This document shows positions 18,761 through 39,768 of a stretch of 56,519 nucleotides of DNA, in pieces (the first letter of the stretch is position 1; each line of letters opens with the position of its first letter). A program made the position numbers and the translations under genes. The notes under the pieces were generated by a model. That model worked only from the letters and a program-made list of their open reading frames with translations. It ran no database searches and had not been told where the DNA came from. The stretch lies in assembly GCF_003334815.1 (NCBI RefSeq), contig NZ_QOWO01000027.1; one strand, given 5' to 3'. Source of the DNA: Escherichia coli (GTDB taxonomy: Bacteria > Pseudomonadota > Gammaproteobacteria > Enterobacterales > Enterobacteriaceae).

Positions 18761-18890
18761 AGTGTGGTAGAATATCAGCTTACTATTGCTTTACGAAAGC
18801 GTATCCGGTGAAATAAAGTCAACCTTTAGTTGGTTAATGTTACACCAACAACGAAACCAACACGCCAGGCTTATTCCTGTGGAGTTATAT

Positions 18891-19220
18891 ATGAGCGATA
18901 AAATTATTCACCTGACTGACGACAGTTTTGACACGGATGTACTCAAAGCGGACGGGGCGATCCTCGTCGATTTCTGGGCAGAGTGGTGCGGTCCGTGCAA
19001 AATGATCGCCCCGATTCTGGATGAAATCGCTGACGAATATCAGGGCAAACTGACCGTTGCAAAACTGAACATCGATCAAAACCCTGGCACTGCGCCGAAA
19101 TATGGCATCCGTGGTATCCCGACTCTGCTGCTGTTCAAAAACGGTGAAGTGGCGGCAACCAAAGTGGGTGCACTGTCTAAAGGTCAGTTGAAAGAGTTCC
19201 TCGACGCTAACCTGGCGTAA
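18891..19220 (+). CDS. trxA: Thioredoxin 1
   Basis: Track ORF is 144 aa; start placed at [13 protein letters not shown] (ATG 18891, RBS ggag upstream) to give the 109-aa protein with the active site WCGPC. Confidence 0.95.
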
Positions 19221-19546: not shown

Positions 19547-20806
19547 ATGAATCTTACCGAATTAAAGAATACGCCGGTTTCTGAGCTGATCACTCTCGGC
19601 GAAAATATGGGGCTGGAAAACCTGGCTCGTATGCGTAAGCAGGACATTATTTTTGCCATCCTGAAGCAGCACGCAAAGAGTGGCGAAGATATCTTTGGTG
19701 ATGGCGTACTGGAGATATTGCAGGATGGATTTGGTTTCCTCCGTTCCGCAGACAGCTCCTACCTCGCCGGTCCTGATGACATCTACGTTTCCCCTAGCCA
19801 AATCCGCCGTTTCAACCTCCGCACTGGTGATACCATCTCTGGTAAGATTCGCCCGCCGAAAGAAGGTGAACGCTATTTTGCGCTGCTGAAAGTTAACGAA
19901 GTTAACTTCGACAAACCTGAAAACGCCCGCAACAAAATCCTCTTTGAGAACTTAACCCCGCTGCACGCAAACTCTCGTCTGCGTATGGAACGTGGTAACG
20001 GTTCTACTGAAGATTTAACTGCTCGCGTACTGGATCTGGCATCACCTATCGGTCGTGGTCAGCGTGGTCTGATTGTGGCACCGCCGAAAGCCGGTAAAAC
20101 CATGCTGCTGCAGAACATTGCTCAGAGCATTGCTTACAACCACCCGGATTGTGTGCTGATGGTTCTGCTGATCGACGAACGTCCGGAAGAAGTAACCGAG
20201 ATGCAGCGTCTGGTAAAAGGTGAAGTTGTTGCTTCTACCTTTGACGAACCCGCATCTCGCCACGTTCAGGTTGCGGAAATGGTGATCGAGAAGGCCAAAC
20301 GCCTGGTTGAGCACAAGAAAGACGTTATCATTCTGCTCGACTCCATCACTCGTCTGGCGCGCGCTTACAACACCGTTGTTCCGGCGTCAGGTAAAGTGTT
20401 GACCGGTGGTGTGGATGCCAACGCCCTGCATCGTCCGAAACGCTTCTTTGGTGCGGCGCGTAACGTGGAAGAGGGCGGCAGCCTGACCATTATCGCGACG
20501 GCGCTTATCGATACCGGTTCTAAAATGGACGAAGTTATCTACGAAGAGTTTAAAGGTACAGGCAACATGGAACTGCACCTCTCTCGTAAGATCGCTGAAA
20601 AACGCGTCTTCCCGGCTATCGACTACAACCGTTCTGGTACCCGTAAAGAAGAGCTGCTCACGACTCAGGAAGAACTGCAGAAAATGTGGATCCTGCGCAA
20701 AATCATTCACCCGATGGGCGAAATCGATGCAATGGAATTCCTCATTAATAAACTGGCAATGACCAAGACCAATGACGATTTCTTCGAAATGATGAAACGC
20801 TCATAA
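19547..20806 (+). CDS. rho: Transcription termination factor Rho
   Basis: Track ORF is 443 aa; start placed at [25 protein letters not shown] (ATG 19547) to give the 419-aa Rho, with Walker A (APPKAGKT) present. Confidence 0.96.
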
Positions 20807-20820
20807 ATTTGTCTTATGCC

Positions 20821-20858
20821 AAAAACGCCACGTGTTTACGTGGCGTTTTGCTTTTATA
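20821..20858 (+). terminator. Rho-independent terminator downstream of rho
   Basis: aaaaacgccacgtgtttacgtggcgttttgcttttat: 10-bp stem acgccacgt/acgtggcgt followed by a T-rich tail. Confidence 0.8.
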
Positions 20859-21045: not shown

Positions 21046-22149
21046 GTGAATTTACTGACAGTGAGTACTGATCTCATCAGTATTTTTTTATTCACGACAC
21101 TGTTTCTGTTTTTTGCCCGTAAGGTGGCAAAAAAAGTCGGTTTAGTGGATAAACCAAACTTCCGCAAACGTCACCAGGGATTGATACCTCTCGTTGGGGG
21201 GATTTCGGTTTACGCAGGGATTTGCTTCACGTTCGGAATTGTCGATTACTATATTCCGCATGCATCTCTCTATCTCGCTTGTGCCGGTGTGCTTGTTTTC
21301 ATTGGCGCGCTGGATGACCGTTTTGATATCAGCGTAAAAATCCGTGCCACCATACAGGCCGCTGTTGGCATTGTTATGATGGTGTTCGGCAAGCTTTATC
21401 TCAGTAGCCTGGGTTATATCTTTGGCTCCTGGGAGATGGTGCTCGGACCGTTTGGTTACTTCCTGACGCTATTTGCCGTCTGGGCGGCCATTAATGCGTT
21501 CAACATGGTTGATGGCATTGATGGCTTGCTGGGCGGGTTGTCCTGCGTCTCGTTTGCAGCAATCGGTATGATTTTGTGGTTCGACGGGCAAACCAGCCTC
21601 GCAATCTGGTGCTTTGCGATGATCGCCGCCATCCTGCCATACATCATGCTTAACCTTGGTATCCTGGGTCGCCGCTACAAAGTCTTTATGGGTGATGCGG
21701 GCAGTACGCTGATTGGTTTTACCGTTATCTGGATCCTGCTCGAAACGACCCAGGGCAAAACCCATCCCATCAGCCCGGTTACCGCTTTGTGGATAATCGC
21801 CATTCCGCTAATGGATATGGTGGCGATTATGTACCGTCGCCTGCGTAAAGGCATGAGCCCATTCTCTCCTGACCGTCAGCATATTCACCATTTGATCATG
21901 CGTGCCGGGTTTACTTCCCGTCAGGCGTTTGTGCTGATTACCCTTGCCGCAGCACTGCTCGCTTCCATTGGCGTGCTGGCAGAATATTCTCATTTTGTCC
22001 CGGAGTGGGTCATGCTGGTGCTCTTTTTGCTAGCATTCTTCCTCTATGGATATTGCATTAAGCGTGCCTGGAAAGTTGCTCGCTTTATTAAGCGCGTAAA
22101 ACGCAGACTGCGTAGAAATCGTGGTGGCAGCCCCAATTTAACCAAATAA
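21046..22149 (+). CDS. wecA: UDP-GlcNAc:undecaprenyl-phosphate GlcNAc-1-phosphate transferase (first ECA step)
   Basis: 367-aa polytopic membrane ORF starting at GTG (MNLLTVSTDLISIFLF...), MraY/WecA family. Confidence 0.93.
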   Translation: MNLLTVSTDLISIFLFTTLFLFFARKVAKKVGLVDKPNFRKRHQGLIPLVGGISVYAGICFTFGIVDYYIPHASLYLACAGVLVFIGALDDRFDISVKIRATIQAAVGIVMMVFGKLYLSSLGYIFGSWEMVLGPFGYFLTLFAVWAAINAFNMVDGIDGLLGGLSCVSFAAIGMILWFDGQTSLAIWCFAMIAAILPYIMLNLGILGRRYKVFMGDAGSTLIGFTVIWILLETTQGKTHPISPVTALWIIAIPLMDMVAIMYRRLRKGMSPFSPDRQHIHHLIMRAGFTSRQAFVLITLAAALLASIGVLAEYSHFVPEWVMLVLFLLAFFLYGYCIKRAWKVARFIKRVKRRLRRNRGGSPNLTK

Positions 22150-22160
22150 ATGAGGATGTG

Positions 22161-23207
22161 ATGACACAACCAATGCCTGGGAAACCGGCCGAAGACGCTG
22201 AAAATGAACTGGATATTCGTGGGTTGTTTCGTACCTTGTGGGCTGGGAAGCTATGGATTATTGGCATGGGGCTGGCGTTTGCGTTAATCGCGCTGGCGTA
22301 TACGTTTTTTGCTCGTCAGGAGTGGAGCTCGACGGCGATTACCGATCGTCCAACGGTGAATATGCTGGGGGGATATTACTCGCAGCAGCAATTTTTGCGT
22401 AACCTGGATGTCCGTTCAAACATGGCTTCTGCCGACCAACCATCGGTCATGGACGAAGCCTATAAAGAGTTTGTTATGCAACTGGCCTCGTGGGATACCC
22501 GCAGAGAGTTCTGGCTGCAAACCGACTATTACAAACAGCGGATGGTGGGCAACAGCAAAGCCGATGCGGCGTTGCTGGATGAAATGATTAACAACATCCA
22601 GTTTATCCCCGGAGACTTTACCCGCGCGGTCAATGACAGCGTGAAGCTTATTGCCGAAACCGCGCCTGACGCTAATAACCTGTTACGTCAGTATGTTGCT
22701 TTTGCCAGCCAGCGTGCAGCCAGCCATCTGAATGATGAGCTGAAAGGCGCATGGGCGGCGCGTACCATCCAGATGAAAGCTCAGGTGAAGCGTCAGGAAG
22801 AGGTGGCGAAAGCCATCTACGACCGCCGGATGAACAGCATTGAGCAGGCGCTGAAAATTGCTGAGCAGCATAATATTTCGCGCAGTGCGACAGATGTACC
22901 TGCCGAGGAATTACCTGATTCAGAAATGTTCCTGCTTGGGCGTCCAATGCTTCAGGCTCGACTGGAAAATTTACAGGCCGTCGGTCCGGCCTTTGATCTC
23001 GACTATGATCAGAATCGGGCCATGTTAAACACCCTGAATGTTGGTCCAACCCTGGATCCGCGTTTTCAGACCTATCGCTATTTGCGTACGCCGGAAGAAC
23101 CGGTAAAACGCGATAGCCCACGTCGTGCCTTCCTGATGATTATGTGGGGCATTGTCGGGGGGCTGATCGGGGCTGGTGTCGCATTAACCCGCCGTTGCTC
23201 GAAATAG
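22161..23207 (+). CDS. wzzE: ECA polysaccharide chain-length modulation protein
   Basis: 348-aa ORF starting at ATG 22161 (a GTG lies one codon upstream), with N- and C-terminal transmembrane segments and a periplasmic coiled-coil region. Confidence 0.9.
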
Positions 23208-23262
23208 CAACACTGCTGCGGTGAGCGCAAAGGCGCTCGCCGCTTATTCGAAGAGAATCGAT

Positions 23263-24393
23263 GTGAAAGTACTGACTGTATTTGGTACGCGCCCGGAAGC
23301 CATCAAGATGGCGCCGTTGGTGCATGCGTTGGCAAAAGATCCTTTTTTTGAGGCTAAAGTTTGCGTCACTGCGCAGCATCGGGAGATGCTCGATCAGGTG
23401 CTGAAACTCTTTTCCATTGTACCTGACTACGATCTCAACATAATGCAGCCAGGACAGGGCCTGACAGAGATAACCTGTCGGATTCTGGAAGGGCTAAAAC
23501 CTATTCTTGCCGAGTTCAAACCAGACGTCGTGCTGGTTCACGGCGATACGACGACGACGCTGGCAACCAGCCTGGCGGCGTTTTATCAGCGTATTCCTGT
23601 TGGTCACGTTGAGGCTGGTCTGCGCACGGGCGATCTCTATTCGCCGTGGCCGGAAGAGGCTAACCGTACATTGACCGGGCATCTGGCGATGTATCACTTC
23701 TCTCCAACCGAAACTTCCCGGCAAAACTTGCTGCGTGAAAACGTTGCGGATAGCCGAATCTTCATTACCGGTAATACAGTCATTGATGCACTGTTATGGG
23801 TGCGTGACCAGGTGATGAGCAGCGACAAGCTGCGTTCAGAACTGGCGGCAAATTACCCGTTTATCGACCCCGATAAAAAGATGATTCTGGTGACCGGTCA
23901 CAGGCGTGAGAGTTTCGGTCGTGGCTTTGAAGAAATCTGCCACGCGCTGGCAGACATCGCCACCACGCACCAGGACATCCAGATTGTCTATCCGGTGCAT
24001 CTCAACCCGAACGTCAGAGAGCCGGTCAATCGCATTCTGGGGCATGTGAAAAATGTCATTCTGATCGATCCCCAGGAGTATTTACCGTTTGTCTGGCTGA
24101 TGAACCACGCCTGGCTGATTTTGACCGACTCAGGCGGCATTCAGGAAGAAGCGCCTTCGCTGGGGAAACCTGTGCTGGTGATGCGCGATACCACTGAGCG
24201 TCCGGAAGCGGTGACGGCGGGTACGGTGCGTCTGGTAGGCACGGATAAGCAGCGAATTGTCGAGGAAGTGACGCGTCTTTTAAAAGACGAAAACGAATAT
24301 CAAGCTATGAGCCGCGCCCATAACCCGTATGGTGATGGTCAGGCATGCTCTCGCATTCTGGAAGCGTTAAAAAATAATCGGATATCACTATGA
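23263..24393 (+). CDS. wecB: UDP-N-acetylglucosamine 2-epimerase
   Basis: Track ORF is 390 aa; start placed at the in-frame GTG giving (M)[19 protein letters not shown]..., 376 aa. Confidence 0.92.
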
Positions 24394-25652
24394 GTTTTGC
24401 GACCATTTCTGTTATCGGACTGGGTTATATCGGGCTGCCAACGGCAGCAGCGTTTGCCTCACGGCAAAAACAGGTAATTGGTGTCGATATCAACCAACAT
24501 GCGGTTGATACCATCAATCGTGGCGAAATCCATATCGTCGAACCTGATTTGGCGAGTGTAGTAAAAACTGCCGTAGAAGGCGGTTTTTTACGAGCGAGCA
24601 CGACGCCAGTTGAAGCGGATGCCTGGCTGATTGCTGTACCCACGCCGTTTAAGGGCGATCATGAGCCAGATATGACCTACGTTGAATCGGCTGCTCGCTC
24701 CATTGCGCCAGTGCTGAAAAAAGGCGCGCTGGTGATCCTTGAATCCACCTCGCCGGTGGGGTCAACCGAGAAGATGGCAGAATGGTTAGCAGAGATGCGT
24801 CCGGATCTCACTTTCCCGCAGCAGGTGGGCGAGCAGGCGGACGTCAACATTGCTTACTGCCCGGAACGCGTGTTACCAGGACAGGTAATGGTCGAGCTGA
24901 TTAAAAACGATCGCGTGATTGGTGGTATGACGCCGGTTTGTTCGGCCCGCGCCAGCGAACTGTACAAAATTTTCCTCGAAGGTGAGTGTGTCGTCACTAA
25001 CTCGCGGACGGCGGAAATGTGTAAGCTCACCGAAAACAGCTTCCGCGATGTGAATATCGCTTTTGCTAATGAATTGTCGCTGATTTGTGCCGATCAGGGG
25101 ATTAACGTCTGGGAACTGATTCGCCTGGCGAATCGTCACCCTCGCGTTAATATTCTTCAGCCTGGCCCTGGCGTGGGCGGTCACTGCATTGCTGTTGATC
25201 CGTGGTTTATCGTGGCACAGAACCCCCAGCAGGCGCGGCTTATCCGTACCGCGCGCGAAGTGAACGATCACAAACCGTTCTGGGTTATCGATCAGGTGAA
25301 AGCGGCGGTGGCTGATTGCCTGGCGGCTACCGATAAACGCGCCAGTGAACTGAAAATCGCCTGCTTTGGTCTGGCGTTTAAACCGAATATTGATGACCTG
25401 CGCGAAAGCCCGGCGATGGAAATCGCTGAACTGATCGCCCAGTGGCATAGCGGCGAAACTCTGGTTGTTGAGCCTAACATCCACCAGTTGCCGAAAAAAC
25501 TGACCGGGCTTTGTACTCTGGCGCAGCTTGACGAGGCGCTGGCAACGGCAGACGTGCTGGTGATGCTGGTCGATCATAGTCAGTTCAAAGTTATCAATGG
25601 CGACAATGTCCATCAGCAGTATGTCGTCGATGCCAAAGGAGTCTGGCGCTGA
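24390..25652 (+). CDS. wecC: UDP-N-acetyl-D-mannosamine dehydrogenase
   Basis: 420-aa ORF with an N-terminal Rossmann motif ([14 protein letters not shown]); its ATG overlaps the wecB stop (ATGA). Confidence 0.94.
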
Positions 25653-26719
25653 TGAGAAAAATTCTGATAACAGGTGGTGCCGGGTTTATTGGCTCGGCGC
25701 TGGTGCGTTATATCATCAACGAAACGAGCGACGCGGTGGTAGTGGTCGATAAGCTGACCTACGCCGGAAACCTGATGTCGCTGGCACCGGTCGCGCAAAG
25801 CGAGCGCTTTGCCTTTGAGAAAGTTGATATCTGCGATCGGGCAGAACTGGCACGCGTATTCACTGAGCATCAGCCAGACTGTGTCATGCATCTGGCAGCC
25901 GAAAGCCATGTTGACCGTTCTATTGACGGCCCGGCAGCGTTTATTGAAACCAACATTGTCGGGACTTATACATTGCTTGAAGCGGCGCGGGCTTACTGGA
26001 ATGCGCTGACGGAAGATAAAAAATCAGCGTTCCGTTTTCATCATATCTCCACTGACGAAGTATATGGTGACCTGCACTCGACGGATGATTTCTTCACCGA
26101 AACCACGCCGTATGCGCCGAGCAGCCCTTATTCCGCGTCAAAAGCCAGCAGCGACCATCTGGTGCGCGCCTGGCTGCGGACCTATGGTCTGCCGACGCTT
26201 ATCACCAACTGCTCGAATAACTACGGCCCTTACCACTTTCCGGAAAAACTGATCCCGCTGATGATCCTCAACGCGCTGGCGGGTAAATCGCTGCCGGTAT
26301 ATGGCAACGGGCAGCAAATCCGTGACTGGCTGTATGTGGAAGATCACGCCCGCGCGCTGTATTGCGTGGCGACCACCGGGAAAGTCGGTGAAACCTATAA
26401 TATTGGTGGTCACAACGAGCGTAAGAATCTCGATGTTGTGGAAACCATTTGCGAGCTGCTGGAAGAACTGGCTCCGAACAAGCCGCACGGCGTGGCGCAC
26501 TATCGTGACCTGATCACCTTTGTCGCTGACCGTCCGGGGCATGATCTGCGTTATGCCATTGATGCTTCGAAAATTGCCCGTGAACTTGGCTGGCTGCCGC
26601 AGGAAACCTTTGAAAGTGGAATGCGTAAAACGGTTCAGTGGTATCTGGCTAATGAAAGCTGGTGGAAGCAGGTGCAGGACGGCAGCTATCAGGGCGAGCG
26701 TTTAGGTCTGAAAGGCTAA
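25652..26719 (+). CDS. rffG: dTDP-glucose 4,6-dehydratase
   Basis: 355-aa ORF with an SDR motif (GGAGFIGS); start overlaps the wecC stop by 1 nt (TGATG). Confidence 0.94.
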
Positions 26720-26737
26720 TTTTCAGCGGAGGCAAAC

Positions 26738-27619
26738 ATGAAAGGTATTATCCTGGCGGGCGGTTCCGGCACCCGATTGCATCCGATTACGCGCGGCGTA
26801 TCGAAGCAACTGTTGCCGATTTACGATAAGCCAATGATTTACTATCCGCTGTCGGTGCTGATGCTGGCCGGTATCCGCGAAATTCTCATCATCACTACGC
26901 CGGAAGATAAAGGTTATTTCCAGCGCCTGCTGGGCGATGGTAGTGAGTTCGGTATCCAGCTGGAATATGCCGAACAGCCCAGCCCGGACGGTCTGGCGCA
27001 GGCCTTTATCATCGGTGAAACCTTCCTTAATGGTGAACCTTCTTGTCTGGTGCTGGGCGATAACATCTTCTTCGGTCAGGGCTTCAGTCCGAAGCTGCGT
27101 CATGTTGCGGCGCGCACCGAAGGGGCGACGGTTTTTGGCTATCAGGTGATGGACCCGGAACGCTTTGGCGTGGTGGAGTTTGACGACAATTTCCGCGCTA
27201 TCTCGCTGGAAGAAAAGCCAAAACAGCCGAAGTCAAACTGGGCGGTGACCGGGCTTTATTTCTACGACAGTAAAGTCGTGGAGTACGCAAAGCAGGTGAA
27301 GCCGTCGGAGCGTGGTGAACTGGAGATTACCTCCATCAACCAGATGTACCTCGAGGCGGGCAACCTGACCGTTGAACTGCTCGGGCGCGGATTTGCCTGG
27401 CTGGATACCGGCACTCACGACAGCCTGATTGAAGCCAGCACCTTTGTACAGACGGTGGAAAAACGCCAGGGCTTTAAGATTGCCTGCCTGGAAGAGATTG
27501 CCTGGCGTAACGGCTGGCTCGATGACGAGGGTGTGAAGCGTGCTGCCAGTTCATTAGCGAAAACTGGCTACGGCCAATATCTGCTGGAGTTACTTCGTGC
27601 CCGTCCGCGCCAGTATTGA
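26738..27619 (+). CDS. rffH: Glucose-1-phosphate thymidylyltransferase
   Basis: 293-aa [21 protein letters not shown]..., nucleotidyltransferase signature. Confidence 0.94.
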
Positions 27620-28271
27620 GCCACTAACCTGGGAAAACGCCTTCTTTGGTGTTAACAGCGCCATCGTGCGCATTACGTCTGAAGCACCGCTCCTGACGCC
27701 AGACGCGTTAGCGCCGTGGTCACGGGTGCAGGCCAAAATTGCGGCATCAAATACGGGTGAACTGGATGCCCTGCAACAGCTGGGATTCTCCCTGGTAGAA
27801 GGTGAAGTTGATTTGGCGCTACCCGTGAACAATGCCAGTGATAGCGGTGCTGTAGTGGCACAAGAGACCGATATTCCCGCATTACGTCAGTTAGCCAGCG
27901 CCGCATTTGCGCAAAGCCGTTTTCGTGCGCCGTGGTATGCGCCTGACGCCAGCAGTCGCTTTTATGCACAGTGGATTGAAAATGCCGTGCGCGGCACCTT
28001 TGATCATCAATGTCTGATTTTACGTGCGGCGTCCGGCGATATTCGCGGCTATGTCTCTTTACGGGAACTCAATGCGACAGATGCGCGAATTGGCCTGCTG
28101 GCTGGACGCGGTGCAGGTGCTGAGCTGATGCAAACGGCGCTAAACTGGGCGTATGCTCGCGGTAAAACAACTTTGCGGGTGGCGACCCAAATGGGCAACA
28201 CCGCCGCGCTTAAACGATACATACAAAGTGGTGCGAATGTAGAAAGCACCGCGTACTGGTTATACAGGTGA
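27597..28271 (+). CDS. wecD: dTDP-fucosamine acetyltransferase (GNAT)
   Basis: 224-aa ORF starting at GTG and overlapping the rffH 3' end by 23 nt; acetyltransferase-like C-terminal half. The start codon is uncertain. Confidence 0.8.
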
Positions 28272-28275
28272 TCAC

Positions 28276-29406
28276 ATGATTCCATTTAACGCACCGCCGG
28301 TGGTGGGAACCGAACTCGACTATATGCAGTCGGCAATGGGTAGCGGCAAACTGTGTGGCGATGGCGGTTTTACCCGTCGCTGCCAGCAGTGGCTGGAGCA
28401 ACGTTTTGGCAGCGCCAAAGTGTTACTGACGCCGTCCTGCACCGCTTCGCTGGAGATGGCGGCGCTGCTGCTCGATATCCAGCCTGGCGATGAAGTGATC
28501 ATGCCGAGCTACACCTTTGTCTCCACCGCCAATGCCTTTGTGCTGCGTGGCGCAAAAATCGTTTTTGTGGATGTTCGCCCGGACACCATGAACATCGACG
28601 AAACGCTGATTGAAGCGGCGATCACCGACAAAACGCGCGTTATCGTGCCGGTCCATTACGCGGGTGTGGCCTGCGAAATGGACACCATTATGGCGTTGGC
28701 GAAAAAGCATAATTTGTTTGTGGTAGAAGATGCCGCTCAGGGCGTGATGTCCACTTACAAAGGGCGTGCACTGGGAACCATTGGTCATATTGGCTGCTTT
28801 AGCTTCCATGAAACCAAAAACTACACGGCGGGCGGTGAAGGCGGCGCGACGCTGATTAACGATAAAGCGTTAATCGAACGAGCCGAGATCATCCGTGAAA
28901 AGGGCACTAACCGCAGCCAGTTCTTCCGTGGTCAGGTCGATAAATATACCTGGCGCGATATTGGCTCCAGCTATTTGATGTCCGATCTGCAAGCTGCATA
29001 CCTGTGGGCGCAACTGGAAGCAGCGGATCGTATCAACCAGCAACGTCTGGCGCTGTGGCAAAACTACTACGATGCGTTAGCGCCTCTGGCGAAAGCCGGG
29101 CGTATCGAGCTGCCGTCGATTCCCGATGGCTGCGTGCAGAACGCGCATATGTTCTACATTAAACTGCGGGATATTGATGACCGGAGCGCGTTGATTAACT
29201 TTCTGAAAGAAGCGGAAATCATGGCGGTGTTTCATTACATTCCGCTGCACGGTTGCCCTGCGGGGGAACACTTTGGTGAGTTCCACGGTGAAGATCGCTA
29301 CACCACCAAAGAGAGCGAGCGCCTGCTGCGCCTGCCGCTGTTCTACAACCTGTCGCCCGTCAATCAGCGTACGGTAATTGCGACTTTGTTGAACTACTTT
29401 TCCTGA
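28276..29406 (+). CDS. wecE: dTDP-4-amino-4,6-dideoxygalactose transaminase
   Basis: 376-aa ORF of the DegT/DnrJ/EryC1 PLP-dependent aminotransferase family. Confidence 0.94.
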   Translation: MIPFNAPPVVGTELDYMQSAMGSGKLCGDGGFTRRCQQWLEQRFGSAKVLLTPSCTASLEMAALLLDIQPGDEVIMPSYTFVSTANAFVLRGAKIVFVDVRPDTMNIDETLIEAAITDKTRVIVPVHYAGVACEMDTIMALAKKHNLFVVEDAAQGVMSTYKGRALGTIGHIGCFSFHETKNYTAGGEGGATLINDKALIERAEIIREKGTNRSQFFRGQVDKYTWRDIGSSYLMSDLQAAYLWAQLEAADRINQQRLALWQNYYDALAPLAKAGRIELPSIPDGCVQNAHMFYIKLRDIDDRSALINFLKEAEIMAVFHYIPLHGCPAGEHFGEFHGEDRYTTKESERLLRLPLFYNLSPVNQRTVIATLLNYFS

Positions 29407-29407
29407 T

Positions 29408-30658
29408 ATGTCGTTGGCAAAAGCGTCCTTGTGGACGGCGGCCAGTACACTGGTCAAGATTGGTGCCGGGTTACTGGTCGGTAAGTTGCTGGCGGTGTCA
29501 TTTGGTCCGGCGGGGCTTGGGCTGGCGGCAAATTTCCGCCAGTTGATTACCGTGCTCGGCGTGCTTGCCGGGGCTGGCATCTTTAACGGTGTAACCAAAT
29601 ACGTTGCCCAGTACCATGATAATCCGCAACAGCTGCGCCGCGTGGTCGGCACTTCATCAGCGATGGTACTTGGTTTCTCTACGCTGATGGCGCTGGTTTT
29701 TGTGCTGGCAGCTGCGCCAATCAGCCAGGGATTGTTTGGTAATACCGACTATCAGGGGCTGGTGCGTTTAGTGGCGCTGGTGCAAATGGGGATCGCCTGG
29801 GGCAACCTGTTACTGGCGCTGATGAAAGGCTTTCGCGATGCCGCAGGTAATGCGTTATCGCTGATTGTCGGCAGCTTGATTGGCGTTCTCGCGTACTACG
29901 TCAGTTACCGTTTGGGCGGTTATGAAGGGGCGTTGCTGGGTCTGGCGCTGATTCCCGCGCTGGTGGTAATTCCTGCCGCCATCATGTTGATCAAACGTGG
30001 TGTCATCCCGTTAAGCTATCTGAAACCCAGCTGGGATAACGGTCTGGCAGGGCAGTTGAGCAAATTTACGCTCATGGCGTTGATTACGTCGGTGACCTTG
30101 CCTGTTGCTTACATCATGATGCGTAAACTGCTGGCGGCGCAGTATAGCTGGGATGAGGTGGGGATCTGGCAAGGGGTGAGCAGTATTTCCGATGCCTACC
30201 TGCAATTTATTACGGCATCGTTCAGCGTATATTTGCTGCCCACGTTGTCGCGGCTAACGGAAAAGCGCGATATCACCCGGGAAGTGGTTAAATCGCTGAA
30301 ATTCGTCTTACCGGCAGTGGCGGCGGCGAGTTTTACCGTCTGGCTGCTGCGTGATTTTGCTATCTGGCTGCTGTTGTCGAATAAATTTACCGCTATGCGC
30401 GATCTCTTTGCCTGGCAGTTAGTGGGTGATGTGTTAAAAGTGGGCGCTTATGTCTTTGGTTATCTGGTGATCGCCAAAGCGTCACTGCGGTTTTATATTC
30501 TGGCGGAAGTCAGCCAGTTCACTTTATTGATGGTATTTGCCCACTGGCTAATCCCTGCGCATGGTGCACTGGGCGCGGCGCAGGCATATATGGCAACTTA
30601 TATCGTCTATTTTTCTCTTTGTTGTGGCGTGTTTTTACTCTGGCGTAGGCGGGCATGA
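29408..30658 (+). CDS. wzxE: ECA lipid III flippase
   Basis: 416-aa polytopic membrane ORF of the Wzx/MOP family, starting 2 nt after the wecE stop. Confidence 0.93.
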
Positions 30659-31734
30659 CTGTACTGATTCACGTACTGGGATCGGATATCCCTCACCATA
30701 ACCGAACCGTTTTGCGGTTTTTCAATGACGCGCTGGCCGCGACGAGCGAGCACGCGCGCGAGTTTATGGTTGTTGGCAAGGACGACGGCTTAAGTGATAG
30801 CTGTCCGGCGCTTTCTGTGCAATTTTTCCCTGGGAAAAAATCGCTGGCGGAAGCGGTCATCGCGAAAGCAAAAGCTAACCGTCAGCAGCGTTTTTTCTTC
30901 CACGGTCAGTTCAATCCCACACTGTGGCTGGCTCTGCTGAGTGGTGGCATTAAGCCCAGCCAGTTTTTCTGGCATATCTGGGGGGCAGACCTGTATGAGC
31001 TTTCCAGTGGCTTGAGATATAAGCTTTTTTACCCACTACGTCGCCTGGCGCAAAAGCGAGTCGGCTGTGTATTTGCCACCCGCGGCGATTTGAACTTTTT
31101 TGCCAAAACGCACCCAAAGGTGCGGGGCGAACTGCTGTTCTTCCCGACGCGGATGGACCCTTCGCTCAATACGATGGCGAACGATCGGCAACGTGAAGGG
31201 AAAATGACCATTCTGGTGGGGAACTCCGGCGACCGCAGCAATGAGCATATTGCTGCCTTGCGCGCCGTTCATCAGCAATTTGGCGATACGGTAAAAGTGG
31301 TGGTGCCGATGGGATATCCGCCTAATAACGAAGCGTACATTGAGGAAGTTCGTCAGGCGGGGCTGGAGTTATTCAGCGAAGAAAATCTACAAATTCTGAG
31401 CGAAAAACTGGAATTTGACGCCTATCTGGCGCTACTTCGTCAGTGCGATCTTGGTTACTTTATTTTTGCCCGCCAGCAGGGCATTGGTACGCTGTGCTTA
31501 CTGATTCAGGCGGGCATTCCTTGTGTGCTTAACCGGGAAAATCCGTTCTGGCAGGATATGACGGAACAACATTTGCCGGTGCTGTTTACTACCGACGATC
31601 TCAACGAGGATATTGTGCGTGAAGCGCAGCGCCAGTTGGCGTCGGTGGATAAAAACACCATTGCCTTCTTTAGCCCTAACTATCTACAAGGCTGGCAGCG
31701 GGCGTTGGCGATTGCCGCCGGGGAGGTCGCATGA
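30655..31734 (+). CDS. wecF: dTDP-Fuc4NAc:lipid II 4-alpha-L-fucosaminyltransferase
   Basis: 359-aa ORF whose start overlaps the wzxE stop (ATGA). Confidence 0.93.
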
Positions 31735-33083
31735 GTCTGCTGCAATTCAGTGGCCTGTTTGTTGTCTGGCTGCTCTGCACGCTGTTTATTGCCACGCTGA
31801 CCTGGTTTGAGTTTCGCCGTGTGCGCTTTAACTTCAATGTCTTCTTTTCATTGCTGTTTTTGCTCACCTTTTTCTTCGGCTTCCCGCTGACCAGCGTGCT
31901 GGTATTTCGCTTTGATGTTGGTGTCGCGCCGCCAGAAATCTTGTTGCAGGCGTTGCTTTCTGCGGGCTGCTTCTACGCGGTTTACTATGTCACCTACAAA
32001 ACCCGCCTACGCAAACGCGTTGCTGATGTACCGCGCCGTCCGCTGTTTACCATGAACCGCGTGGAGACCAATCTTACGTGGGTGATCCTGATGGGTATCG
32101 CGCTGGTAAGCGTCGGCATCTTCTTCATGCACAACGGCTTTTTGCTGTTCCGGCTTAACTCCTACAGTCAGATCTTTTCCAGTGAAGTCTCCGGCGTGGC
32201 GTTAAAACGCTTCTTTTACTTTTTCATCCCGGCGATGCTGGTGGTCTACTTTCTGCGCCAGGACAGCAAAGCGTGGCTGTTTTTCCTCGTCAGCACGGTC
32301 GCCTTTGGCTTGCTGACTTATATGATTGTCGGCGGCACTCGCGCCAATATCATCATCGCATTCGCTATCTTCCTGTTTATTGGCATTATTCGCGGCTGGA
32401 TTTCGTTGTGGATGCTGGCGGCGGCGGGCGTGCTGGGGATTGTTGGCATGTTCTGGCTGGCACTAAAACGCTATGGAATGAATGTGAGCGGCGATGAAGC
32501 GTTCTATACGTTTCTCTATCTCACTCGCGACACCTTCTCGCCGTGGGAGAATCTGGCGTTGCTGTTGCAGAACTACGACAACATCGACTTCCAGGGCCTG
32601 GCTCCAATTGTCCGCGATTTCTATGTCTTTATCCCTTCCTGGCTGTGGCCGGGTCGCCCGAGTATGGTGCTGAACTCAGCCAACTACTTTACCTGGGAAG
32701 TGCTGAATAACCACTCCGGACTGGCGATCTCGCCTACGCTTATAGGCTCACTGGTGGTGATGGGCGGCGCGTTGTTCATCCCGCTCGGGGCGATCGTGGT
32801 TGGTCTGATCATCAAATGGTTCGACTGGCTGTATGAGCTGGGCAACCGCGAGCCTAATCGCTATAAAGCTGCGATATTGCACAGTTTCTGCTTTGGGGCG
32901 ATCTTCAATATGATCGTGCTGGCGCGTGAAGGGCTGGATTCGTTTGTCTCACGCGTGGTCTTTTTTATCGTGGTCTTCGGCGCATGTCTGATGATCGCAA
33001 AACTGTTGTACTGGCTTTTTGAAAGCGCCGGACTCATTCATAAACGTACAAAATCATCGCTCCGGACGCAGGTTGAAGGATAA
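31731..33083 (+). CDS. wzyE: ECA polymerase
   Basis: 450-aa highly hydrophobic multi-pass ORF whose start overlaps the wecF stop (ATGA). Confidence 0.93.
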
Positions 33084-33085
33084 CA

Positions 33086-33826
33086 ATGAATAACAACACC
33101 ACGGCACCAACCTATACGCTGCGTGGCTTACAGTTGATTGGTTGGCGTGATATGCAGCACGCCCTCGATTATCTGTTTGCTGACGGGCAGCTTAAGCAGG
33201 GAACGCTGGTTGCCATTAATGCTGAAAAAATGCTGACTATTGAAGATAACGCCGAGGTCAGGGAGTTAATTAACGCTGCCGAATTTAAATATGCGGATGG
33301 CATCAGCGTTGTACGTTCAGTACGTAAAAAGTACCCGCAGGCGCAGGTTTCCCGCGTTGCCGGTGCCGATCTCTGGGAAGAGCTGATGGCGCGCGCAGGC
33401 AAAGAAGGGACGCCGGTATTTCTTGTGGGCGGTAAACCTGAAGTGCTGGCGCAAACTGAAGCTAAACTGCGCAACCAGTGGAATGTGAATATCGTTGGCA
33501 GTCAGGATGGTTATTTTAAACCCGAGCAGCGTCAGGCGCTGTTTGAACGCATTCATGCCAGCGGTGCGCAAATCGTCACCGTTGCGATGGGATCGCCAAA
33601 GCAGGAGATCATCATGCGCGACTGCCGTCTGGTACATCCAGATGCGCTGTATATGGGCGTTGGCGGGACTTACGATGTTTTCACCGGTCACGTAAAACGC
33701 GCACCGAAAATCTGGCAAACGCTGGGGCTGGAGTGGCTCTACCGCCTGCTTTCGCAGCCGAGCCGCATTAAGCGTCAGCTTCGTTTGCTGCGTTATTTAC
33801 GCTGGCACTACACCGGCAACCTATGA
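33086..33826 (+). CDS. wecG: UDP-ManNAcA:lipid I ManNAcA transferase
   Basis: 246-aa ORF of the WecB/TagA/CpsF glycosyltransferase family; last gene of the ECA cluster. Confidence 0.93.
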
Positions 33827-39561: not shown

Positions 39562-39768
39562 GTAGATGCTCATTCCATCTCTTATGTTCGCCTTAGTGCC
39601 TCATAAACTCCGGAATGACGCAGAGCCGTTTACGGTGCTTATCGTCCACTGACAGATGTCGCTTATGCCTCATCAGACACCATGGACACAACGTTGAGTG
39701 AAGCACCCACTTGTTGTCATACAGACCTGTTTTAACGCCTGCTCCGTAATAAGAGCAGGCGTTTTTTT
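39562..39768 (+). ncRNA. glmZ: Small regulatory RNA GlmZ (glmS activator)
   Basis: Recognised by sequence (gtagatgctcattccatctcttatgttcgcc...), ending in the terminator hairpin gcctgctc...gagcaggc plus a run of 7 T; a -10-like cataat lies 9-14 nt upstream of the proposed 5' end. Confidence 0.85.

Follow-up and report, generated by a model that had tools for sequence, protein, structure and literature searches.

Within the enterobacterial common antigen (ECA) cluster of E. coli the genes rffH and wecD appear to share 23 nucleotides in different reading frames, and wecD appears to open there with a GTG codon. This raises the question whether WecD indeed begins inside the coding sequence of its upstream neighbor and, if so, whether this arrangement, like the tight packing of the cluster as a whole, exceeds what is common in bacterial operons. 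We analyzed the cluster in a window (i.e. the whole stretch of DNA studied) of 56,519 nucleotides. We consider it very likely that it represents a canonical co-transcribed ECA operon with the usual compact junctions, from which a WecD of 224 residues is made starting 23 nt inside rffH.

A canonical operon with compact junctions

The region is the canonical, already known E. coli ECA operon. Its twelve genes lie on one strand in the order of Table 1, their open reading frames equal the RefSeq coding sequences, and the coordinates are those of the RefSeq coding sequences of an identical E. coli genome; many E. coli genomes match the region at 100% identity and have all 12 genes annotated there. 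All 12 products exceed the curated NCBIfam equivalog cut-offs, mostly with residue 1 on profile position 1, and RffH, which carries the label rfbA in RefSeq, stays below the cut-off of the RfbA-specific model NF012024 (444.7 < 588), which is what one would expect of the ECA paralog. The operon is found downstream of rho, which ends at position 20806 and is followed by a strong terminator (20822-20849), and the order rho-wecA-wzzE is common to Salmonella, Enterobacter, Kosakonia and Atlantibacter. A terminator scan yielded no convincing internal intrinsic terminator in the operon, and rifampicin run-off delays that rise from rfe through rffH and rffC to rffM indicate a single long transcript (PMC4332155). 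No Rfam families were found within the cluster. The antisense ORFs in the region sit opposite well-conserved coding genes and have nothing in their favor.

Table 1. Features of the ECA operon in the window, in order, with the distance of each gene to the preceding one and the NCBIfam match of its product (score vs cut-off)
Feature	Position	Strand	Start and product	Distance (nt) and junction	NCBIfam match
wecA (rfe)	21046..22149	+	GTG, 367 aa; RefSeq CDS		TIGR02380, 575.5 vs 326
wzzE	22161..23207	+	ATG, 348 aa	11, after wecA	NF008645, 693.7 vs 332; residues 1-347 on profile 1-348
wecB	23263..24393	+	GTG inside AUGUGA, 376 aa	55, after wzzE	TIGR00236; residues 1-372 on profile 1-365
wecC	24390..25652	+	ATG	-4, ATGA overlap with wecB	NF008286, 860 vs 459; residues 1-420 on profile 1-420
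rffG	25652..26719	+	ATG	-1, TGATG overlap with wecC	NF007582, 832.3 vs 698; residues 1-355 on profile 1-355
rffH (RefSeq label rfbA)	26738..27619	+	ATG, 293 aa	18, after rffG	TIGR01207, 534.3 vs 360.65
wecD Shine-Dalgarno GGAG	27586..27589	+		7-nt spacer to GTG; in rffH codons Leu283-Glu284	
rffH/wecD dual-coding overlap	27597..27619	+		23 nt, wecD GTG to rffH TGA, different frames	
wecD (rffC)	27597..28271	+	GTG, 224 aa	-23, overlap with rffH	NF008212, 357.6 bits vs 219; residues 1-224 on profile 1-231 of 232
wecE (rffA)	28276..29406	+	ATG	4, after wecD	TIGR02379, 737 vs 434.85; residues 1-376 on profile 1-376
wzxE	29408..30658	+	ATG	1, after wecE	NF011679, 809.2 vs 325; residues 1-416 on profile 1-416
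wecF (rffT)	30655..31734	+	ATG	-4, ATGA overlap with wzxE	NF002752, 856.2 vs 754; residues 1-359 on profile 1-359
wzyE	31731..33083	+	ATG	-4, ATGA overlap with wecF	NF002820, 868.4 vs 510
wecG (rffM)	33086..33826	+	ATG	2, after wzyE	NF002980, 444.2 vs 323

The first-pass annotation had described most junctions as overlapping or at most 2 nt wide, which is correct, since 7 of the 11 are; the individual overlaps it listed (ATGA at wecB/wecC, wzxE/wecF and wecF/wzyE, TGATG at wecC/rffG, 23 nt at rffH/wecD) were retrieved in a check of the sequence, and the GTG starts it had proposed for wecA, wecB and wecD are present and conserved across genera. Some 14% of the genes in the E. coli genome start with GTG, so that three out of twelve does not constitute an enrichment (binomial P = 0.23). 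The neighboring operons within the window are equally tight, with junctions of at most 2 nt in 3 of 6 cases for ilv, 2 of 3 for hemCDXY and 3 of 3 for dapF-yigA-xerC-yigB. The annotation's further remark that all this is expected in a tightly coupled polysaccharide operon, and nothing novel, agrees with both observations. [quoted passage not shown] Given the compact neighbors, the unenriched GTG count and the fact that spacings of -4 and -1 already are the commonest and most enriched overlap classes across prokaryotes (PMC12548453), we deem such an adaptation very unlikely. The tight junctions and GTG starts are real and conserved; they are of a kind typical for bacterial operons and do not surpass chance when compared to other operons.

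As judged from sequence comparison, the GTG starts of wecA and wecB are genuine and conserved. In the case of wecA, Salmonella, Enterobacter, Kosakonia and Atlantibacter share the GTG and the GAGAGC upstream of it; a rival GTG at codon 6 was rejected, the same four genera having GCN or TCG at that position. In the case of wecB, 28 of 28 loci retain the GTG with its context aagagaatcgatGTGaaa, the immediate context being AUGUGA in 24 and UUGUGA in the remaining 4, and residues 1-376 of the product match PDB 1F6D (376 aa). The gene is given in Table 2 of PMC9841429 as having an atGTG start and no Shine-Dalgarno (SD) sequence of at least 4 nt. An upstream GTG (23221) in the open frame of wecB is not its start. 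The open frame of wzzE likewise reaches one codon beyond the annotated ATG, to a GTG at 22158, and the ATG is the start. The 55-nt gap between wzzE and wecB contains a GC-rich predicted hairpin of 11 bp (23218..23243, + strand), whose minimum free energy of -29.6 kcal/mol (z = -4.06) was equaled by none of 200 shuffles.

The start of wecD

The first-pass annotation had singled out both the rffH/wecD overlap and the wecD start as worth confirming. In the wecD frame there is an in-frame stop at 27555-27557, and GTG 27597 is the sole ATG, GTG or TTG between this stop and codon 24. A genome scan seeded with an alignment of eight WecD sequences returned only Enterobacteriaceae, and more distant wecD contexts were obtained via exact-protein look-ups. 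The overlap measures 23 nt in 46 of 46 rffH-containing Enterobacteriaceae loci, in which wecD starts with GTG (45 loci) or ATG (one locus), 11 codons before a conserved Trp. A WecD of only 52% identity still has both the GTG and the 23-nt overlap. Natural deletions of rffG-rffH act as controls: in 34 loci that lack rffH, wecD starts at Trp-10 to Trp-12 (one, L054, at Trp-14), an ATG occupies exactly Trp-11 in 11 of these, and some have a strong SD before wecD (e.g. taaaggaggcgaaATG).

At the protein level, aligning WecD N-termini across species, a check that the annotation had suggested, places homologs with as little as 31% identity in register from residues 1-12 onward. The N-terminal motif L-x-W-E-S-x-F-F is present, and W12 and F17 do not vary, and F16 hardly does, in 37 WecD sequences that extend down to that same identity. 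The protein is 99% identical to that of PDB 2FS5/2FT0, the construct of which covers residues 2-224; this construct is recombinant (the PDB chain has an 11-residue tag added) and therefore does not on its own prove the native start. In 2FT0, residues 3-69 are ordered and make up a partial GNAT domain (PMC4964394). The TRAINSPOTTER and the Salmonella riboproteogenomic supplements hold no wec entries, nor any N-terminal peptide or in vivo initiation peak that would report the native WecD N-terminus directly. With the predicted N-terminus (M)PVRASIE, trypsin would cut at Arg4 and leave a terminal peptide of just 3-4 residues, probably the reason why it is missing from tryptic data. Comparative genomics, family profiles, distant homologs and the crystallized construct with its domain all uphold the GTG: WecD starts at 27597, yielding a protein of 224 aa.

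Three other origins of WecD products have to be weighed. Besides the main product of GTG 27597 there might be a minor one, either an isoform truncated to one of the internal GTG codons (24 or 44) or a short out-of-frame product of a CTG located 13 nt upstream of the start. The INRI-seq data contain a weak, non-annotated signal at this CTG (2 of 5 replicates, peak RPF 6.6), placed at position 3974453 of NC_000913.3, with the GTG at about 3974466, and pairs of N-terminal proteoforms are common in E. coli (PMC13245402). The CTG has no in vivo Ribo-RET signal, the internal GTGs are unconserved and have no SD, and a truncated WecD would miss part of the folded domain, which makes minor products highly improbable. 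We consider it exceedingly improbable that WecD derives altogether from one of the internal codons, i.e. GTG codon 44 (27726), which gives the legacy protein of 181 aa, or codon 24 (27666), such that there would be no overlap and the 5' segment would be an untranslated spacer. Both codons are in-frame GTGs and residue 44 is where the older TIGR02382 model (wecD_rffC) starts, but GTG is kept in only 35 (codon 24) and 49 (codon 44) of 80 loci, the others having non-start codons, the NF008212 match spans the complete protein and codons 9-43 show a clear third-position periodicity in the wecD frame (see below). The legacy 181-aa form is effectively refuted by N-terminal conservation, periodicity and structure. 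Finally, a WecD initiated at a downstream ATG, which the annotation had put forward as the outcome that would remove the overlap, is impossible, as no in-frame ATG occurs before codon 178 (28128), which would leave a 47-aa fragment without most of the GNAT domain, and the next one is codon 199. The above implies that the current annotation of WecD and of the 23-nt overlap is correct and that the older form is a truncation, a matter of slight importance beyond annotation hygiene.

Two reading frames on one sequence

The two frames can be followed in the substitution pattern. Up to position -1 relative to the wecD start, the entropy per codon position (0.30/0.19/1.06 bits) displays the third-position periodicity of rffH; the overlap hardly varies (0.08/0.41/0.0 bits at the three wecD codon positions); and from +23 on the third-position periodicity is that of wecD (0.50/0.45/1.25 bits for codons 9-23 and 0.93/0.73/1.44 bits for codons 24-43). 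The switch between the frames falls exactly at the rffH stop. The constraint extends to bases that are synonymous in rffH: the SD G at -11, a third codon position of rffH, is the same in 47 of 47 sequences, and between -12 and +19 invariant third positions, among which this G and the T of the wecD GTG, number 4 out of 11, as compared to 3 out of 273 elsewhere in rffH (Fisher P = 4e-5). The mean third-position entropy of rffH is 0.59 bits in this stretch versus 1.13 bits in the remainder. A stricter test of synonymous sites, restricted to codons for invariant amino acids and missing the last codon, gave P = 0.12. The overlap, the SD and the start bases are under dual-coding constraint, and rffH/wecD is a textbook case in which the SD and start codon of a gene are kept at synonymous sites of the gene upstream.

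Probable translational coupling and known systems

Initiation of WecD would be SD-directed, and ribosomes that translate rffH or terminate on it probably assist it, i.e. by translational coupling. Such coupling could consist of ordinary initiation on wecD mRNA that is held open by the upstream ribosome, or of re-initiation after termination, which takes place 20 nt downstream of the wecD start. With respect to the former, no RNA structure occluding the wecD ribosome-binding site was found beyond chance (z = -0.44), nor covarying pairs, so that the 'unfolding' form of coupling lacks specific support. With respect to the latter, the position of the start, 20 nt before the rffH stop, makes re-initiation by a backward-moving ribosome a possible mechanism. 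In its strongest form the overlap would be an obligatory coupling device, WecD being made mainly by ribosomes that terminate on rffH and move some 20 nt back, which would fix the ratio of RffH to WecD. On this view the GTG, though weak, would have been retained because an ATG would force a residue other than Arg at RffH position 287, and in lineages without rffH a new wecD start would have been needed, in the form of ATG plus SD or of an NTGA overlap with wecC. We regard this obligatory form as unlikely. A downstream start well inside the upstream gene is likewise seen in the coat/lysis pair of phage fr (-38 nt; PMC12548453). Unlike in that pair, wecD is preceded by a GGAG SD of its own at optimal spacing, with no structure to occlude it, and hence de novo initiation suffices and back-scanning is not required.

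The other junctions also have known counterparts. NTGA and TGATG overlaps are used for translational coupling (PMC6728339, PMC10666635, PMC12548453) and four junctions of the operon (wecB/wecC, wecC/rffG, wzxE/wecF and wecF/wzyE) match these exactly; they too may act as coupling sites that help to fix enzyme ratios. The wecB start is listed among the AUGUG ambiguous initiation sites described for E. coli (PMC9841429). WecD itself is 99% identical to the characterized and crystallized TDP-fucosamine acetyltransferase (2FS5/2FT0; Hung et al. 2006, as cited in PMC4964394 and PMC4363471), and is on that basis predicted to perform the acetyl-CoA-dependent acetylation of dTDP-Fuc4N. As a whole, the operon is essentially no different from the wec/rff (ECA) operon of K-12 (RefSeq; PMC7439462): the 12 genes, their order, strand, coordinates and start codons are the same, as is the setting, with rho on one side and thrP plus a tRNA cluster on the other, and WecD has A80 and S120 where K-12 (PDB 2FS5) has V and G.

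Operon identity and junctions

The genes between positions 21046 and 33826 constitute the canonical operon for the enterobacterial common antigen (ECA), which has been reviewed (PMC7439462), is transcribed as a single long transcript (PMC4332155) and is, as a feature, ordinary and already known. The chromosomes of many E. coli strains match the interval at 100% identity, and 5,425 of the 5,426 complete E. coli genomes contain it at a coverage of at least 80%. RefSeq places twelve genes on one strand, namely wecA, wzzE, wecB, wecC, rffG, rffH (labelled rfbA), wecD (rffC), wecE (rffA), wzxE, wecF (rffT), wzyE and wecG, with rho upstream and thrP plus a tRNA cluster downstream. All twelve products pass the curated cut-offs of the matching NCBIfam models, residue 1 falling on profile position 1 in most. 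At its 5' end the window has two tRNA genes, whereas the projected coordinates in strain 300709 (L087, 1-1705), identical over the ECA cluster, hold an IS110-family element and maoP; the window thus derives from an E. coli strain other than its best-listed match.

Features by window coordinates
Feature	Coordinates	Strand	Remark
tRNA genes	1-157		two, Rfam, at 5' end
'Rev39 5'UTR' family	3376-3668		Rfam, 157 bits, over ilv leader region
TrxA 5'-UTR thermometer	18821-18920		Rfam, 79 bits
ECA cluster	21046-33826	+	twelve genes
mini-ORF	22150-22161		ATG AGG ATG TGA
wzzE-wecB gap	23208-23262		sole sizeable intergenic gap in operon
hairpin	23218-23243		11 bp, GC-rich
AUGUGA at wecB start	23261-23266		GTG at 23263
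rffH	26738-27619	+	
stop upstream in wecD frame	27555-27557		TAG, nearest
INRI-seq CTG	27584		out of frame
wecD	27597-28271	+	GTG start, 224 aa
wecD codon 24	27666		in-frame GTG
wecD codon 44	27726		in-frame GTG
GlmZ sRNA	39562-39768		Rfam, 218 bits

Junction distances, i.e. from the stop of one gene to the start of the next, were all taken from the sequence, and 7 of the 11 junctions overlap or are at most 2 nt apart. The spacings and the GTG starts of wecA, wecB and wecD described in the first-pass annotation are borne out; the remaining nine genes start with ATG.

Junction distances within the ECA operon
Junction	Distance (nt)	Sequence
wecA/wzzE	11	
wzzE/wecB	55	
wecB/wecC	-4	ATGA
wecC/rffG	-1	TGATG
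rffG/rffH	18	
rffH/wecD	-23	
wecD/wecE	4	
wecE/wzxE	1	
wzxE/wecF	-4	ATGA
wecF/wzyE	-4	ATGA
wzyE/wecG	2	

The wecA and wecB starts and their surroundings

The wecB GTG is a genuine start: residue 1 lies on position 1 of profile TIGR00236, PDB 1F6D is the 376-aa protein that starts at this codon, and each of the 28 loci extending as far as the start keeps the GTG with its context aagagaatcgatGTGaaa. The GUG is part of AUGUGA, in which it overlaps an out-of-frame AUG with UGA directly behind it (a start-stop). Of the 28 Enterobacteriaceae loci, 24 read ATGTGAA here and the other 4 TTGTGAA, and a purine-rich AAGAGAA upstream is also conserved. No canonical Shine-Dalgarno (SD) sequence is present upstream of wecB, which has been listed as an atGTG-start gene without SD (PMC9841429). 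In the case of wecA, Salmonella, Enterobacter, Kosakonia and Atlantibacter all retain the GTG and, upstream of it, GAGAGC. The rival GTG at codon 6 of E. coli wecA is GCN or TCG in these four genera.

Directly after the wecA stop (TAAATG) lies a mini-ORF whose TGA overlaps the wzzE ATG (ATGTGATG). The sequence ATGAGGAT also occurs in Salmonella and is absent in Enterobacter, Kosakonia and Atlantibacter; it probably represents no more than the SD region of wzzE (GAGGA). The gap between wzzE and wecB holds the strong hairpin GCGGUGAGCGC-AAAG-GCGCUCGCCGC, followed by UUAUUCG (z = -4.06; none of 200 shuffles folds equally well), a putative element that could act as a weak attenuator or mRNA stabiliser. 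In other genera a stop codon that appears to be that of wzzE is found as little as about 13 nt ahead of the wecB GTG, so that this hairpin may be confined to Escherichia.

The wecD start and its overlap with rffH

The first-pass annotation had flagged the GTG start of wecD and its 23-nt overlap with rffH for confirmation, and sequence, homologue and comparative evidence shows both to be correct. The GTG is the sole canonical start codon between the upstream TAG and codon 24, and it is preceded by GGAG at 7 nt. Initiation at a downstream ATG, named there as the refuting case, is impossible, because no ATG occurs in frame before codon 178, from which a 47-residue fragment would result. A start at the GTG of codon 44, giving a 181-aa protein, is the real historical alternative: residue 44 is exactly where the older model TIGR02382 begins. 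NF008212, a newer model, spans residues 1-224. Full-length homologues (225-247 aa), recovered down to about 31% identity from 1.84 billion representative proteins, align from query residues 1-12 onward with their own residues 1-15. Across an alignment of 37 sequences W12 and F17 never vary and F16 hardly does, and the motif L-x-W-E-S-x-F-F that contains them is located well ahead of both codon 24 and codon 44. PDB entries 2FS5 and 2FT0 hold residues 2-224. As summarised in a review on GNAT proteins with reference to the structure paper (PMC4964394; also PMC4363471), residues 3-69 (with 219-224) form an ordered N-terminal partial GNAT domain, a folded unit that initiation at codon 24 or 44 would truncate. 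The aligned codons, moreover, are GTG in only 35 (codon 24) and 49 (codon 44) of 80 loci and GTT, GTC, GTA, CTG or others in the rest, so that neither is conserved as a start codon. TIGR02382 (wecD_rffC, NCBIfam/TIGRFAM) retains the obsolete 181-aa annotation and drops 43 residues of the conserved, structurally ordered N-terminal domain.

Neither a direct native N-terminus nor an in vivo initiation peak for WecD was found in the N-terminal and initiation data sets examined; Arg4 probably explains the former, as trypsin would leave an N-terminal peptide too short for detection. A weak, out-of-frame CTG without annotation, 13 nt before the wecD GTG, is listed by INRI-seq (PMC9825163, Table S3), where it appears in 2 of 5 in vitro replicates at a peak RPF of 6.6 and lacks an in vivo Ribo-RET signal. 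This CTG coincides with the CTGGAG that holds the wecD SD, and either noise or a shifted call of the genuine site is the likely explanation.

One genome per species was scanned, giving 80 Enterobacteriaceae loci (WecD 64-94% identity). Where rffH is kept upstream (46 loci), the overlap is without exception exactly 23 nt and wecD starts 11 codons before the conserved Trp, with GTG in 45 of them; Intestinirhabdus alba (L023) alone has ATG. The other 34 have lost rffH, and 32 of them rffG as well. They constitute a natural experiment, since their wecD continues to start 10-12 codons ahead of the Trp, L054 (14 codons) being the sole exception. The start is ATG in 14, of which 11 lie at exactly Trp-11, some with a strong SD (e.g. 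taaaggaggcgaaATG in L074 and L080); elsewhere it overlaps the wecC stop as GTGA, TTGA or TGATG. Among the loci that lack rffH (within L005-L081, e.g. L036, 2423-2500; also L025, L029, L030, L033, L045, L055), several keep a 78-nt rffH 3'-end remnant between wecC and wecD, and L015 and L041 keep rffG with intact rffH absent. The pattern suggests repeated, independent deletions with a rebuilt wecD start. Of two more distant relatives, L084, whose WecD is only 52% identical, again shows the GTG and the 23-nt overlap with rffH, and the rffH-less L085 carries agaggattctATG. Matches to rffH in two frames (residues 1-247 and 231-293) in Citrobacter koseri NCTC10786 (L007, 1641-2520) suggest a frameshift or an assembly error, the wecD GTG and 23-nt geometry being intact.

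Per-site entropy across 47 ungapped sequences (positions relative to the wecD GTG)
Segment	Frame	Bits at codon positions 1/2/3
-90 to -1	rffH	0.30 / 0.19 / 1.06
0 to +22 (overlap)	wecD	0.08 / 0.41 / 0.00
wecD codons 9-23	wecD	0.50 / 0.45 / 1.25
wecD codons 24-43	wecD	0.93 / 0.73 / 1.44

The periodicity of the entropy switches from the rffH to the wecD frame at the first base after the rffH stop, and wecD codons 9-43 therefore evolve as coding sequence in the wecD frame. The dual-coding overlap is conserved, and the SD and start bases embedded in rffH are under selection: rffH third positions are invariant in 4 of 11 cases within -12..+19 versus 3 of 273 in the background (Fisher P = 4e-5; one sequence set, so that shared phylogeny acts on both classes equally), and among the invariant ones are the G at -11 in the SD core and the T in the wecD GTG.

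Possible coupling, and compactness

Translational coupling would be possible at the -4 and -1 junctions as well as at the rffH/wecD overlap. Structure around the wecD ribosome-binding site does not exceed chance (z = -0.44, no covariation), and with the well-spaced GGAG ordinary SD-directed initiation would suffice for wecD. By analogy to the fr coat/lysis pair, re-initiation after termination 20 nt downstream could occur, although nothing requires it.

GTG starts make up roughly 14% of those in the E. coli genome, and 3 of 12 ECA genes is no enrichment (binomial P = 0.23). In a review of translational coupling, -4 ranks first among the enriched spacings across prokaryotes, with -1 and -8 next (PMC12548453). 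Junctions of at most 2 nt account for 3 of 6 in ilvLXGMEDA, 2 of 3 in hemCDXY and 3 of 3 in dapF-yigA-xerC-yigB, all in the same window. The packing of the ECA operon is thus not unusual, in line with the earlier low-key reading that it is what a coupled polysaccharide operon should look like: the neighbouring operons are just as compact.
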